A stretch of DNA of 64,000 nucleotides from an uncultured Chloroflexia bacterium (GCA_963813535.1 CAWEZH010000002.1:192001-256000); one strand, 5' to 3'. Numbered from the stretch's first letter, positions 40,248 to 56,597 are shown. Notes: generated from the letters alone by a model not told the origin. Program-made: numbers and translations.

Positions 40248-40766
40248 ATGACGACGATGCGTCCGCGCGTGGGTTGGGTTCTCGCGGGGATCGGCCTGCT
40301 GGCGATCGCGAGCCTCGCGACGCTGGCCGCTCTGTTAGCCGCCGGCGAGGGCGGCCGGCAAGAGCTAAGCGGCGAGGTCAGGATCGTCGAGAGCCAGATG
40401 GCGCGGTTCGATCGGCAGGTCCATGCGGACACGGCCGACGCCACGCCGAGTCCCGGGAACGTCGACAATGCCCTTTGCCTCGAGCTCGCCCATGCTGTGG
40501 ACGTTGCGCCCGGTCACGCCGTGGTCCTCTATGACCTAGCCGGGAAGGTCATCGGCGAAGGGACGCTCGGCGAGCCCGAGCGATCGATCGACGAGTCGAG
40601 ACCGGCCTACGCCGACACCATCGTGTGTCGGCTGCTGTTCCGTGTCGGGGATGTTCGGCCGACCGATGCGGTCAGGATCGACATCGGCTCTCGCACGCGC
40701 GCGACCTACGACTCAGCGGCACTCGCCAGTCGAGGCTGGTACGTGGAGTTGGAGCTGGGCTCCTAG
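40248..40766 (+). CDS. Hypothetical secreted or membrane-anchored protein
   Basis: N-terminal hydrophobic helix; two Cys; 172-aa ORF. Confidence 0.55.
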   Translation: MTTMRPRVGWVLAGIGLLAIASLATLAALLAAGEGGRQELSGEVRIVESQMARFDRQVHADTADATPSPGNVDNALCLELAHAVDVAPGHAVVLYDLAGKVIGEGTLGEPERSIDESRPAYADTIVCRLLFRVGDVRPTDAVRIDIGSRTRATYDSAALASRGWYVELELGS

Positions 40767-40786
40767 ATCTCGCGACACGCTCATCC

Positions 40787-40923
40787 GCATCTGGAACATG
40801 CCGTGTTACGTCCGACCGCCGAAGCGTGTCGGACCGGGGTTTTAGCCGTCATTTGGAACATGTGATGTTCCAATTGACGAATGAACCGGCGTTCAGCGGT
40901 CGCTCGTAACACGTGATGTTCCA
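40787..40923. repeat. REP/MITE-like palindromic cluster (three GGAACAT-type units, 28-bp imperfect terminal inverted repeats)
   Basis: 40792-40819 vs reverse complement of 40896-40923 match 24/28; central ttggaacat-gtg-atgttccaa; lies between convergent genes. Confidence 0.8.
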
Positions 40924-40986
40924 AACGTGGGCGAGGAGCACCCGCGGACCCGACGACGAGGGCCCGGCGCAGCCCGCGCTGCCCGC

Positions 40987-42315
40987 TCAGCCGAGGAGCG
41001 TCTCTCCGACGAAGCCACCTTCGGACGCCCCGGGCGGGATGGCGAAGATCGCCGACCCGATATGCCGGATGTACTCATTGAGCAGGTCCGGACCGAGCGA
41101 TCGCTGCAGGGCGATGAACTGGCTAGGCGAGCGCTGATAGGCGAGGAAGAACAGACCGGCATCGAGTCGGCCGTAGGGCGTGTTCCCGTCGACGTAGTTG
41201 TAGCCGCGCCGCAGGATCCGGACGCCGCCGTTGGACGACGGGTGGGCCAGGCGGACGTGGGCGGCCGTGTCGATGACCGGCGCGCCATCGGCGCTCGCGT
41301 CGAAGTCGGGCGTGGTGAACTCGTCGCCGCCGCTGAGGGGCGCGCCCGGTCCCTTCGAGCGCCCGATGATCGTCTGCTGCTCGGCGAGCCGGACCCGATC
41401 CCAGGACTCGATGAGCATCTCGATCTTGCGGACCACCAGGTAGCTCCCGCCGGAGAGCCACGCCGGCTCGCCGGTCGGTACCCAGACGTGATCCTCGAGA
41501 GCGGCCGTGTCGTCGGCCAGGATGTTGGCGGTCCCGTCCCTGAACCCCATGAGGTTTCGGGGTGTCACCTGGGTGGTCGTGGTCTTCGACGTCCGCCCGA
41601 AACCCATCTGCGACCAGCGGATCGCCGCCCGGCCAAAGGCGATGCGCGATAGGTTGCGCACCGCATGGACGGCCACCTGGGGATCGTCGGCGCAGACCTG
41701 GAGACACAGGTCGCCGTGACTCCACTCCGCCTTGAGGGCGTCGCCGACGAACGGTGGGAGACGCTCCAGCTCGGGTGGTCGTCGGGCTGCGACTCCGTAT
41801 CGGTCGACCCCGTCCTTCTCGAACACCCCGGGCCCGAACCCGATCGTGATGGTCAGGCCACTGGCCGTGAGGTCGAGGGCTTCACCCGTATCTTCGGGCG
41901 GCGACTCGGGATCGCCGCCGATGGCCCCGGACGCACTGGTCTCGAGTCCTTGAGTCATCCGAGACGCCGCGTATGACCAGTCCCGGAGCAAGCCGACCAG
42001 GCCCTCCCGATCGGTCCCGTCCGCGATGTCGAAGGCCGCGAAATGGAGGTGGTCCTGGACCGGCGTCGTGATGCCGGCCTGGTGCGGACCGTAGAACGGA
42101 TAGGCCGTGGAGCCACTACTCGAACCCGTAGTCCCGGGTGCCGGATCGCCCGGACGCACGCCGAGCAGGGGACCGGCGAGGCCCCCGACGACCAGCCCGG
42201 CCGTCCCGGTGGCGGCCGCTCCGAGGAGCGCGCGCCGGGACAGACCACGGCGTCCATCCGTCTCCGGCTCGGGCCCCGCGGGCGCCGGACGCTCGGCGAC
42301 CTTGGGCTCGGTCAC
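40987..42315 (-). CDS. efeB: Dyp-type heme peroxidase EfeB with Tat signal
   Basis: LSRRALLG Tat motif, HQAGITTPVQ, RNLMGFRDGTAN, HVRLAHP, ILRRGYNY. Confidence 0.92.
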   Translation of the reverse strand: MTEPKVAERPAPAGPEPETDGRRGLSRRALLGAAATGTAGLVVGGLAGPLLGVRPGDPAPGTTGSSSGSTAYPFYGPHQAGITTPVQDHLHFAAFDIADGTDREGLVGLLRDWSYAASRMTQGLETSASGAIGGDPESPPEDTGEALDLTASGLTITIGFGPGVFEKDGVDRYGVAARRPPELERLPPFVGDALKAEWSHGDLCLQVCADDPQVAVHAVRNLSRIAFGRAAIRWSQMGFGRTSKTTTTQVTPRNLMGFRDGTANILADDTAALEDHVWVPTGEPAWLSGGSYLVVRKIEMLIESWDRVRLAEQQTIIGRSKGPGAPLSGGDEFTTPDFDASADGAPVIDTAAHVRLAHPSSNGGVRILRRGYNYVDGNTPYGRLDAGLFFLAYQRSPSQFIALQRSLGPDLLNEYIRHIGSAIFAIPPGASEGGFVGETLLG

Positions 42316-54358: not shown

Positions 54359-55084
54359 CTAGCCGGCCTGGTCGGTCCTCGCGGTTTCGTCGGCCTCGTC
54401 GTCGGTCGCCTCGAGCGCGTCGGCGATCTCGTCGAGAGTCGTGACCACGACCGCGGCGCCCGAGCCCTCCAGGGCTTCCGCCGACACGGCCGACCCCGCC
54501 GTGACGCCGATCGGGATCATCGCTGCGGCCACGGCTGCTGCCATGTCCCACGTCGCGTCGCCGACATACCAGGCCATCGGCGGATCGACGCCCAACTCCT
54601 CCGCGGCGCGGAGCAGCAGGTCGGGCTCGGGCTTGGCGTGCTCGACGTGGCTGGCGTCGACGATGGTCGGTTCCTTGTCGAGGTCCAGGGCCGCGACGGA
54701 CGTCCGGACCTGCTCCTTCCGACTCGACGTGGCGATGGCCGCTTTCATCCCGCGCGCCTCGATCGTGTCGAACAGACGCCGCACGCCCGGCAGCGGGCGA
54801 GGGGACCGGTTGAGTTGCTCGTAGAGCTCGCCGCACCGCTTGTCGATGTCTTCGGCGCGGTCGTCGTCGATCGGCTGGCCGGCAAGGGCGGCGACCTCGC
54901 GGGCGAGTCTCTTGCCATCGACACCGATCAGCGGTCCGAGCTCGTCCTTGCTCGCGGGGATGCCCGCTTCCTCGAAGATTGCCAACCAGGCATCGATGCG
55001 CGTCTGGACGGTATCGACGAGGGTGCCGTCGAGGTCGAAGATCACGGCCTCGGGTGCGGGCAGCTCTCGGTCGTGGGCGGTCAT
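54359..55084 (-). CDS. HAD family phosphatase
   Basis: FDLDGTLVD, ATSS, KPEPD, VGDATWD. Confidence 0.92.
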   Translation of the reverse strand: MTAHDRELPAPEAVIFDLDGTLVDTVQTRIDAWLAIFEEAGIPASKDELGPLIGVDGKRLAREVAALAGQPIDDDRAEDIDKRCGELYEQLNRSPRPLPGVRRLFDTIEARGMKAAIATSSRKEQVRTSVAALDLDKEPTIVDASHVEHAKPEPDLLLRAAEELGVDPPMAWYVGDATWDMAAAVAAAMIPIGVTAGSAVSAEALEGSGAAVVVTTLDEIADALEATDDEADETARTDQAG

Positions 55085-55103
55085 GCTCGGGACGGTAGCA
55101 GCG

Positions 55104-55126
55104 GGAACATCACGTCGAGACGTGAT
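55104..55126. repeat. GGAACATCACGT palindromic unit downstream of the HTH-nuclease gene
   Basis: 55104-55115 is the exact reverse complement of 40911-40922; overlaps hairpin atcacgtc-ga-gacgtgat. Confidence 0.6.
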
Positions 55127-55153
55127 CGACCCGACACAGAACGGGCTCCCGCC

Positions 55154-55804
55154 TTACATCAGGAGCAGGCAGTCTCCGCCGGGGTCCTCACCACGCCCGA
55201 GCGCCGCGAGGCACGCGCGAGCTCCGATGGGGAACTGCTCGCGGAGCTGCGGGACGTCGCGCAACACGTTCCGGTTGTGGCGTGTGTCGGCGACGAGCAG
55301 GATCGCGCGGGTCGCCCCCAAGTCGCGTTGCTTGGCGCGCAGCCGACGCTCGGTGGCCTGGACGTCGTGGAGTCGTGTCTCGGCTTCGACGATGGCGCTG
55401 AATGCCCGTCCGCGCGCCATCCCGTCGGCGCTCCGGAGGTCGCCTTGGATGGGTATCGGGACCTCTGTGCGCCAACGAACGGAACCATCGAGCCTCGCGG
55501 CAAAGCGACTCAGCAGGGCGATGTGCGCCTTATCTCTGATCGGTAGCCCGATCGGGTGAACACCCAGGCTGAGCTCGGCACCGAGCGCGGATGCGAGACG
55601 CGCGAGAAGCTCGATGTCGACGTGGTTGGCGATCCCGGCCTCGATCCTTCGGACCTGCGTGTGGGAGATGCCGACCATCGCCCCGAGGTGGCGGGTGCTG
55701 ATGTCCGCTGTCAATCGGTGGGTTCGGAGCTCCTGGCCGGCACGTCGAAGCAGGTACTCGGCGCGTCGTTTTCCTCGGTGAGCTGCGGATTGCCAGGTTG
55801 GCAT
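55154..55804 (-). CDS. XRE-family HTH fused to a putative PD-(D/E)XK (DUF559/Vsr-like) nuclease domain
   Basis: LRTHRLTADISTRHLGAMVGISHTQVRRIEAG (HTH); WRTEV...RSADG...IVEAETRLHDVQ...K acidic pattern; -10 CAGACT 6 nt before the ATG. Confidence 0.7.
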   Translation of the reverse strand: MPTWQSAAHRGKRRAEYLLRRAGQELRTHRLTADISTRHLGAMVGISHTQVRRIEAGIANHVDIELLARLASALGAELSLGVHPIGLPIRDKAHIALLSRFAARLDGSVRWRTEVPIPIQGDLRSADGMARGRAFSAIVEAETRLHDVQATERRLRAKQRDLGATRAILLVADTRHNRNVLRDVPQLREQFPIGARACLAALGRGEDPGGDCLLLM

Positions 55805-55844
55805 GGCAAGAGTCTGATTTGGGGCGATCACCTGCGGCTCACCG

Positions 55845-56017
55845 GCATCTGGAACATCCCGATGTTCCGATCGACCGGCGAAGCTCGCATCACCGCCCGT
55901 TCCGAGGCCCACGAGGGCAGTTCGCCGGTCGTCTGGAACCCCGATTGCGTTCCAAACGCACCTGAGAGTGTCCGATCGGCCCGCTCGCCGGTCAGTTGGA
56001 ACACCGGGAGGTTCCAA
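55845..56017. repeat. Three TGGAAC-N8/9-GTTCC palindromes upstream of the HTH-nuclease gene
   Basis: ggaacatc-cc-gatgttcc (55851), tggaac-N9-gttcca (55934), ttggaac-N8-gttccaa (55996); cgccggtc/gaccggcg flanks. Confidence 0.8.
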
Positions 56018-56195
56018 TCGCAGCCAGGACGGCGCGCGGGCGGGTTCGCGGCCCGGACCGCGGCCGACCGGCGGCACGCCACTCACCGTCGATCCGCTAG
56101 ACCCCCGAGCGTAGAATCGGCGCACTCCCGACCCGCCCTCGAGATGCACGCACTTTCGTCCCTCGGACGGGCCGGCGTGTGGAGGTACGCGGACG

Positions 56196-56597
56196 ATGCA
56201 GCACGCATTCCTGATCGACCTCGAGGACAAGCCAGGTGCGCTCGCCGACGTGGCCGAGGCCATCGCCGCGAAGGGCGTCAACATCACGAGCGTGAGTGGG
56301 GCCAGCTGTGGCGATCGGGGCCGCATCGCGATCGCGACCGACGACAACGCCCAGACCCGCGCCGCGCTCGCCGATCTGCCCTGCACCTTCGAGCAGAAGG
56401 AGATCACCATCGCCGCGCTGCCCCACGCACCGGGCACGCTCGCCAAGGCCGCCCGCCAGCTCGCCAACGCGGGACTCGATATCGAGTCGGTGATGCTGAT
56501 GGGTATGCAGGGCAATGACATCGAGGTCGGGTTCGTCACGAGCGACCCGGTCATGGCGCGCAGCGCGCTGGACCGGGTGGTGTCGGCGAGCGGCTAG
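56196..56597 (+). CDS. Tandem ACT domain protein
   Basis: LEDKPGALADVAEAIAAKGVNI; HAPGTLAKAARQLANAGLDI. Confidence 0.85.
   Translation: MQHAFLIDLEDKPGALADVAEAIAAKGVNITSVSGASCGDRGRIAIATDDNAQTRAALADLPCTFEQKEITIAALPHAPGTLAKAARQLANAGLDIESVMLMGMQGNDIEVGFVTSDPVMARSALDRVVSASG

Follow-up and report, generated by a model that had tools for sequence, protein, structure and literature searches.

A helix-turn-helix protein with a predicted restriction-endonuclease fold and the palindromic repeats beside its gene in a soil Chloroflexota

Why would a small gene with a predicted nuclease domain lie directly beside palindromes that recur at other places in the same genome? The question is raised by a stretch of 64,000 nucleotides (nt), hereafter the window, from the genome of a soil Chloroflexota (G000, contig C2, positions 192001-256000; an assembly of 3.28 Mb in three contigs, 69.5% G+C and 92.9% complete). 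The gene, at window positions 55154..55804 on the minus strand, was recognized as an open reading frame (ORF) whose translation is a protein of 216 amino acids (P0001), and the close relatives of this product are labelled Candidatus Limnocylindrales (Chloroflexota) by their sources. An earlier note, made from the sequence alone, had described palindromes on both sides of the gene and had likened the arrangement to that of REP (repetitive extragenic palindromic) elements and their REP-associated tyrosine transposase (RAYT). Here we examine the palindromes, the protein and their relatives (G numbers designate genomes, L numbers individual fetched loci, and the genus-wide comparison set comprises 101 genomes). 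We consider it fairly probable that the gene encodes a sequence-specific DNA-binding nuclease, that the adjacent palindromic element is its cognate DNA, and that the pair works like REP and RAYT with an enzyme that does not belong to the HUH class.

Directly upstream of the gene three TGGAAC-type palindromes (family 1) are found: TGGAACATCCCGATGTTCC at 55850-55868, followed by GACCGGCG, and TGGAACCCCGATTGCGTTCCA at 55934-55954 and TTGGAACACCGGGAGGTTCCAA at 55996-56017, both preceded by CGCCGGTC. Direct reading bears out what the earlier note had said of positions, flanks, sequence identities and the 216-residue gene. All three palindromes are present at the places it had given; what it had counted as three is, nevertheless, one composite palindrome of about 190 nt at 55839..56030 (delimited by nhmmer units at C2:247839-248028 and by its hairpin fold). 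The outer two palindromes are inverted copies of each other about the central one, and the whole folds as a single hairpin in which the outer units are paired (-47.5 kcal/mol, z -3.7). The "orphan cluster" reported at 40787-40923 does carry the same motif, and constitutes another family-1 composite element (40781..40936, from nhmmer and folding), a single hairpin of 156 nt (-41.8 kcal/mol, z -4.9) flanked by convergent genes, namely an unknown ORF at 40248-40766 on the plus strand and a Dyp peroxidase gene at 40987-42315 on the minus strand. The sequence GCATCTGGAACAT is present at both 40787 and 55845.

On the other side, between the stop codon of the gene and the start of a HAD hydrolase gene, a hairpin at 55104..55133 (inverted repeat 55102-55133) holds a 12-nt match to the family-1 units, 55104-55115 (GGAACATCACGT) being the exact reverse complement of 40911-40922. 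The genome contains nine copies of this 12-mer: seven within the seven family-1 loci described below, one at 55104 and one in a coding region (C2:1031457). The match exists, as the earlier note had stated; it is weak, however, as the family-1 profile does not find it at E<10, and the idea that palindromes bracket the gene is doubtful. The orthologue in G024 has a similar remnant at the corresponding spot. The 55104 hairpin may be a decayed family-1 unit, a chance match being the alternative.

Is the family restricted to the window? An exact scan of the genome returned 10 TGGAAC-N6-12-GTTCCA sites, and a scan with one mismatch revealed true clusters at seven places. An nhmmer search of the genome, with 26 units in the profile, yielded 72 rows at E<10, 56 of which (28 places, both strands, E<=0.077) fall in exactly seven loci, the other 16 having E>=1.1. 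These loci, each with matches on both strands, are C2:232787-232935 (window 40787-40935), C2:247839-248028 (window 55839-56028), C2:716476-716581, C2:945579-945869 (locus D), C2:994223-994576, C3:277951-278104 and C3:363586-363939; all seven are intergenic, and three lie between convergent genes. Furthermore, in a census of perfect hairpins with 6-nt arms, GGAACA (11 seen vs 1.15 expected) and TGGAAC (10 vs 1.28) rank first, so that the genome-wide enrichment anticipated in the earlier note is found both in dispersal and in rank. The units share the flank type CGCCGGTC...GACCGGCGAA, and the spacing between the half-sites of their palindromes varies from 7 to 10 nt. Binding sites of other kinds (LexA/Cheo boxes, -35 sites of extracytoplasmic function sigma factors and parS) were dropped as candidates, since the order of the half-sites, their variable spacing and the intergenic arrays would not suit them. 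A tRNA-Leu gene (C2:945908-945995; L014 408-495) adjoins locus D, and in G021 the repeats lie on the opposite side of the equivalent tRNA gene.

What, then, does the gene encode? Its N-terminal part corresponds to a helix-turn-helix (HTH) of the XRE family: HTH_31 matches residues 23-77 (window 55574-55738, minus strand; E 1.5e-8, 35.3 bits vs a cut-off of 27) and HTH_3 reaches 25.1 bits vs a cut-off of 23 (Pfam), the best solved matches being HigA2, C.AhdI, C.BclI and ClgR. Pfam, NCBIfam, PHROGs and PADLOC recognize this HTH only, save for one weak PADLOC match to a type IV restriction enzyme at residues 63-162 (E 1.2e-3). A whole-protein AlphaFold2 model from 29 sequences has a mean predicted local distance difference test (pLDDT) of 89.7. 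In a family-profile sequence search of solved structures only HTH proteins were returned, and no sequence similarity to PD-(D/E)XK nucleases was detected. Because this search and a Foldseek search with both domains were dominated by the HTH, the C-terminal domain (residues 85-216, window 55157-55552, minus strand) was folded alone (25 sequences; pLDDT 91.3, predicted template modelling score 0.85), and its modelled core has an alpha-beta-beta-beta-alpha-beta topology. The top Foldseek rows for this domain are AF1548, NucS, the R2 restriction-like endonuclease, McrC, Hjc and OkrAI (E from 7e-3). A VIA search, independent of Foldseek, gave NucS (Z 9.5, root-mean-square deviation 2.8, 93 residues aligned), XisH-like 2okf (8.8), AF1548 (8.6), Can2 (8.3) and Hjc (7.7), and nearly all of its 50 listed rows are PD-(D/E)XK nucleases; as Z values from 9.5 to 7.7 are in the middling range of the tool, the weight rests on the uniformity of the list. 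The earlier note had guessed a restriction fold resembling DUF559; the fold agrees, and the particular resemblance does not, as Vsr attains a Z of 5.8 vs 9.5 for NucS, 8.8 for the XisH-like protein and 8.6 for AF1548.

Eleven residues (D91, E114, D122, R124, D127, D147, Q149, R153, K158, R160 and D161) are invariant in the 29 sequences, and E140-A-E142-T143 is kept in at least 90% of them. The model places D127 on strand 2 and E140-x-E142 on strand 3, K158 being contributed by the second core helix. BamHI uses E-x-E. Variants of the PD-(D/E)XK site that take their lysine from the second core helix (PD-EXX-K type) are known, and BamHI is listed among the variants (PMC3424549); D127, E140, E142 and K158 would fit a variant site of that kind. 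As modelled, the protein is an XRE HTH fused to a domain of restriction-endonuclease (PD-(D/E)XK) fold with an invariant acidic site. With NucS/EndoMS, Hjc, AF1548, XisH-like proteins and BamHI/OkrAI it would share the core fold, the acidic residues in strands 2 and 3 and the helix-2 lysine (for such variants, see PMC3424549), and it differs from these nucleases in its N-terminal XRE HTH, its small size and its linkage to repeats. Searched against 1.84 billion proteins, a profile of the C-terminal domain retrieves (E<=1e-3) 1,226 clusters defined at 50% identity, and most of the best 150 of these are about 216 residues long with the domain at residues 86-216. The look-alikes of the protein according to a language model are Chloroflexota clusters without names. 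Moreover, the ratio of nonsynonymous to synonymous substitution (dN/dS) of the gene against seven orthologues is 0.16-0.25, with dS near saturation, and both domains are under purifying selection in this analysis.

The association of gene and palindrome is not peculiar to this locus. Two paralogues, about 39% identical, exist in G000. Downstream of the one at C1:185300-185959 stand four TCGGTCAYSGGGTGACCGA units (family 2), and downstream of the one at C2:838700-839341 five or six TTGCCG-N5-CGGCA units (family 3); each of the three paralogous genes adjoins a different palindrome cluster of its own. Family 2 (GGTCAC) comprises 26 units at 9 loci and ranks second for over-representation in the census (26 seen vs 8.8 expected); the two short palindromes that exceed expectation most in this genome each accompany one of the three genes. 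If a 650-nt gene were placed at random, the probability of its lying within 350 nt of a family-1 locus would be 0.0034 and of family 2 0.0042, or 1.4e-5 jointly. The shared flank motif TTCGYYGG occurs at 4.3 per kb in family 1 and 3.6 per kb in family 2, vs 0.30 per kb genome-wide in G000, and is absent from family 3. Family 2 also forms near-identical tandem arrays with an exact period of 72 nt at C3:44390-44708 (5 units) and C2:1542871-1543125 (4 units), and G071 has 61-nt arrays of its own palindrome family; arrays seem to grow through tandem duplication of unit and spacer.

Does the association persist among homologues? Family-1 units adjoin 14 of the 17 distinct fetched loci with at least 51% identity and none of the 12 with at most 45%; the misses are L004, L032 and L028, whose upstream side a contig end cuts off. 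From 64% identity upwards the orthologues are in synteny, the order being HAD hydrolase, gene, repeats and ACT-domain gene, and their repeats could therefore be inherited along with the locus. Three loci, L026 (G101, 59%), L027 (G091, 51%) and L003 (G008, 54%), are non-syntenic and yet have family-1 units, L026 having full units on both sides of the gene. Among named records of metagenome-assembled genomes, units are found upstream in 10 of 13 loci with at least 64% identity (two of the misses have no upstream sequence and one is a partial match) and, below 60%, at a single locus out of 32; several of these records duplicate genomes that bear G numbers and hence are not independent.

Across the genus, 17 of the 101 genomes have at least 10 family-1 matches (both strands counted; these counts are lower bounds). 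They include all 13 genomes that hold an orthologue of at least 59% identity, or pieces of one at 67-74%, vs 4 of the 88 without a close orthologue (G021, G064, G083 and G091). Gene and element are jointly missing from the syntenic site in G021 and G064. In the latter, a remnant of about 40 nt of the 3′ end of the gene remains between the HAD and ACT genes (L037, on G064:C4), a deletion of about 1 kb having removed the rest together with the element; since the last ~40 nt are kept, the gene was deleted there. The copy at the syntenic site in G091 has a stop codon, and those of G076 and G053 are split, assembly errors being a possible cause. Amino-acid identity among the syntenic orthologues is 64-74%, and the HAD and MBL proteins encoded next to them reach 72-94%, a comparison which indicates that the gene evolves faster than its neighbours.

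In turn, the palindromes differ with the protein, a covariation for which the earlier note had proposed to examine homologues. A maximum-likelihood tree of 29 homologues contains a clade of 16 (support 100/99), nearly all associated with TGGAAC, and a second group with the GGTCAC, GGTCAT, TCGAAC, GATCAC, GTGCAC and TTGCCG cases. Orthologues of one of the paralogues (paralogue 2), situated at one shared chromosomal site, differ in their downstream arrays: that of G071 (69.5% identity) has at least 7 TGTGCC-N7-GGCACA units, that of G096 (67%) GGAACG...CGTTAC units, and that of G106 (68-71%, in two pieces) GGTCACCCGGTGAC units. The dispersed copies follow the same pattern. G071 carries 20 GTGCC-type sites distributed over 5 loci (8 of the sites adjoin the gene) and just 3 CGGTCAY-N3-GTGACCG sites; G000 carries 19 of the latter and none of the GTGCC type. 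In both genomes, the family that is scattered is the family beside that genome's gene. Residues 47-51, at the start of the recognition helix, read SHTQV in the TGGAAC clade, S(S/E)SQV with GGTCAC or GGTCAT, SKSHA with TGTGCC, SGMHV with GGAACG, SGAHV with TCGAAC and SPAQA with GATCAC; in these alignments the recognition helix appears to differ in step with the adjacent palindrome.

Family-1 elements also move, in the sense that their locations differ among related species, and the empty sites for which the earlier note had called are found. G024, the closest relative examined, has all seven G000 loci in conserved order and an eighth, where it measures 292 nt vs 29 nt in G000. The extra copy has 3 units; over 158 nt of the insert, identity to the G000 element 40781-40936, which is 6.6 kb away, amounts to 84%. 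In G021 there are about 15 family-1 loci (one, L061, without a unit at nhmmer E<0.01), none of which, once their flanks are mapped to G000, coincides with a G000 locus. For four of them both flanks lie close together in G000 with no family-1 element between (gaps of about 0, 16, 120 and 130 nt, vs 180-345 nt in G021), at least two being near-empty sites, and another two G021 loci are found in the intergenic region adjoining one that bears an element in G000. Of the marks of a miniature inverted-repeat transposable element, inverted ends are present, as the elements are long palindromes, and a clean target-site duplication was not seen in five pairs of filled and empty sites.

How could these observations be brought together? 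Those grounds for refutation named in the earlier note that computation can address all turned out in favour of its idea: the motif is enriched and dispersed, homologues have flanking palindromes of their own that differ with the protein, and the C-terminal domain is modelled as a restriction-endonuclease fold with conserved acidic residues. REP-type repeats are among the commonest non-coding features of bacteria, and to our knowledge the HUH transposase RAYT is their only known partner enzyme. In the locus described here, the HTH would read the variable core of the palindrome, probably as a dimer or on the stem of a hairpin or cruciform, and the nuclease domain would nick or cut at or near the element. 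Cutting would then drive duplication, tandem expansion and spread of the elements, or maintain them, as RAYT serves REPs and the hairpin-forming REP doublets (REPINs). The palindrome nearest to the gene, about 64 nt before its start codon, probably lets the protein control its own expression. Binding, cleavage and mobilization by the protein are what we infer.

The analogy has several components. In the REP/REPIN and RAYT (TnpA-REP) systems, according to Nunvar 2010 (PMC2817692), the gene lies next to the repeats, co-evolves with them, evolves faster than its neighbours, and its presence correlates with repeat abundance; such systems are also treated in PMC3337134 and PMC3116915. Likewise, the present gene is single-copy per type and adjoins its cognate palindromic repeats, which are dispersed, intergenic and often arranged as inverted pairs forming long hairpins; the gene changes along with its repeats, these are more abundant where the gene is present (13/13 vs 4/88), the gene outpaces its neighbours in evolution, and inheritance is vertical. 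There are also differences. The enzyme here is an HTH with a PD-(D/E)XK domain and not an HUH Y1 transposase, as the earlier note had already suggested: no RAYT gene was found in the genome, a search for Y1_Tnp (PF01797) in the 92.9%-complete assembly being negative in conditions under which control genomes match. Copy numbers are in the tens and not in the hundreds (family 1 has 28 units at 7 loci and family 2 has 26 at 9), the units have no GTAG or CGTC tag, and tandem arrays with periods of 61-72 nt are common. A bracket is less clear than in RAYT systems: the clusters appear mostly one-sided, the present gene having a composite element upstream and only the 12-nt possible relic downstream, L026 has full units on both sides, and in clade II the arrays are downstream only. 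Also comparable are the CGTC-tagged REPs, described in PMC3733652 (Di Nocera 2013) as palindromic, intergenic, without an HUH partner and often placed between convergent or unidirectional genes. They resemble our repeats as palindromic intergenic sequences without an HUH partner; their sequences are unrelated, and here a candidate partner of another enzyme class adjoins.

A number of results weigh against the proposed partnership. On the side of the enzyme, strand 3 carries E-x-E and not E-x-K. On the side of the repeats, the copy number is low (28 units vs more than 100 for REPs), family 3 is confined to the side of its gene, and neither clean target-site duplications nor exact ends of the elements could be made out. 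As for the linkage between the two, in a third clade, of 5 homologues, the genes stand without a repeat array; the covariation of the helix rests on 8 palindrome types and was judged by eye; and the co-occurrence of gene and repeat across the genus is confounded by shared ancestry. Moreover, family-1 repeats persist in G021, G064 and G083, where a close orthologue is lacking, and family 2 is kept at 7 or more loci in G024, which has no intact paralogue-2 gene (only a broken, 59%-identical gene elsewhere and nothing at the paralogue-2 syntenic site). Around 42 wider loci the flanks show no enrichment of TTCGYYGG (mean 0.43 vs 0.29, p 0.09), which, with its absence from family 3, makes the idea of a conserved flank tentative. 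Lastly, generic measures of flank palindromes (perfect 6-nt arms; 8-nt arms with one mismatch; self-BLAST for inverted repeats) did not separate 45 wider homologue loci from random G000 genes; with 8-nt arms, at least 2 palindromes occurred at 14 of 45 wider loci vs 50 of 300 controls. Each of the three measures is blind to known positives and informative neither way.

The main rival is that the protein is only a transcription factor, an XRE regulator acting on a palindrome at its own promoter, the nuclease fold serving for dimerization or sensing and the other copies riding on repeats spread by slippage, recombination or another transposase. The comparison is natural, since XRE autoregulators and the C proteins of restriction-modification systems have an HTH of the same family and a palindrome just upstream of their own gene. 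In agreement with it, the nearest palindrome is fixed at 64-67 nt before the start codon in 5 orthologues, single similar palindromes occur at about -60 in more distant homologues, family 3 stays at its gene, and repeats persist in genomes without the gene. The present protein differs from those regulators in its fused nuclease-fold domain, in its sites, which form mobile composite repeats and arrays, and in having no partner gene. In addition, the acidic site is conserved, with purifying selection acting on the nuclease domain; clade II arrays are found after the stop codon only, outside the promoter; 3 of 7 family-1 loci have convergent genes on their two sides; G000 and G021 do not keep their sites beside orthologous genes; and a half-site spacing of 7 to 10 nt would be unusual for the operator of a dimeric HTH. 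The catalytic residues, downstream arrays, convergent-gene sites and locus turnover speak against regulation as the whole story, and we rate it as unlikely.

A host factor that processes DNA structure, resolving or suppressing cruciforms or hairpins and so making tolerable long palindromes that spread by other means, could also be envisaged. The structure-specific nucleases NucS and Hjc are among the best fold matches, and the elements do fold as long hairpins; such a role would not by itself explain why the dispersed family tracks the one adjacent to the gene. It is hard to separate from the cognate-nuclease reading on present data, and we deem it improbable. Quite improbable, in our estimation, is a defence or toxin nuclease, that is, a solitary restriction-like or abortive-infection endonuclease restrained by its own HTH, with the palindromes incidental; the earlier note had likewise offered an auto-repressed toxin, in favour of which nothing specific emerged. 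Such a role would suit the restriction-endonuclease fold and the HTH_VI, capH and type IV enzyme profiles that PADLOC matches weakly (E 8e-5 to 1e-3). Nonetheless, an inspection of the neighbours found no methyltransferase, antitoxin or other defence gene adjoining the nuclease gene, a difference from type II restriction-modification and toxin-antitoxin systems, and the neighbours are instead a HAD hydrolase and an ACT-domain protein. The presumed target, moreover, is present many times in the genome, the gene keeps its synteny across species and is inherited vertically, and the joint change of palindrome and protein would be left unexplained. Coincidence, with ordinary REP-like repeats beside an unrelated regulator gene, is disfavoured as very improbable: only 1 of 7 family-1 loci adjoins the gene and XRE genes are common, but the joint chance for two G000 paralogues is about 1.4e-5, and the pairing recurs at non-syntenic loci and, with other palindromes, in G071, G083, G096, G106 and G064.

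If the cognate-nuclease reading were extended to the family as a whole, it would lead to a bolder and more tentative proposal, which we put forward as a possibility below even chances: a second, independent invention of the REP/RAYT lifestyle. HTH and PD-(D/E)XK nucleases (about 1,200 clusters at 50% identity, mostly from soil Chloroflexota) would copy and maintain long palindromic elements which they cut as hairpins or cruciforms. Recognition would be modular, a fast-changing HTH acting on the variable core and the nuclease on a more conserved flank of TTCGCCGG type, and new pairs would arise via switches of the recognition helix. Among the papers listed by full-text literature searches, none was found to describe a non-HUH, restriction-fold partner of REP-like repeats; entire REP super-families have no known partner according to PMC3733652. 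Should the proposal be true, partnerships of an enzyme with a palindrome arose more than once, long palindromic repeats could spread without HUH chemistry, and the family would offer a natural set of proteins and DNA partners in which a switch of specificity can be seen among close relatives.

Some features of the locus remain to be described. The neighbours of the gene encode a HAD hydrolase and proteins of the ACT-domain, MBL-fold and FGE-sulfatase-like kinds. In the public annotation, the ORF 55154-55804 is called with a later start, as a protein of 186 residues (P0002); the 216-residue form (MPTW...) is the one kept in relatives. Between gene and element, at 55806..55832 on the minus strand, lies a short leader of the motif type GTGATCG-N4-6-(A/G)TAAG(C/T)G, recognized by eye in the upstream regions of about 14 loci. 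The motif is found 15-40 nt before the start codon of most family members (L002-L012 and L026-L035), including paralogues at unrelated loci, and is possibly a promoter or a family-wide control site distinct from the variable palindromes. A scan of 55000-56250, leader motif included, found no sigma-70 consensus promoter and no terminator. No Rfam family matched anywhere in the window, and hence no known structured RNA lies there.

Two further observations concern other parts of the genome. In the G000 census, GCACCT-NN-AGGTGC occurs at 10 places vs 2.6 expected and GGTGCA hairpins number 5 vs 0.7, counts which suggest that these sites may constitute another binding-site or repeat family. Finally, C2:1015482-1017546 and C3:316857-318935 are copies of one gene pair, a 309-residue ORF starting VPECAMSPVLRF and a neighbour starting MESDEIWL. 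Both copies hold an identical TGGAACGACAGGCTGTTCCA site inside the ORF, which reflects a segmental duplication, the site being unrelated to the repeat family.

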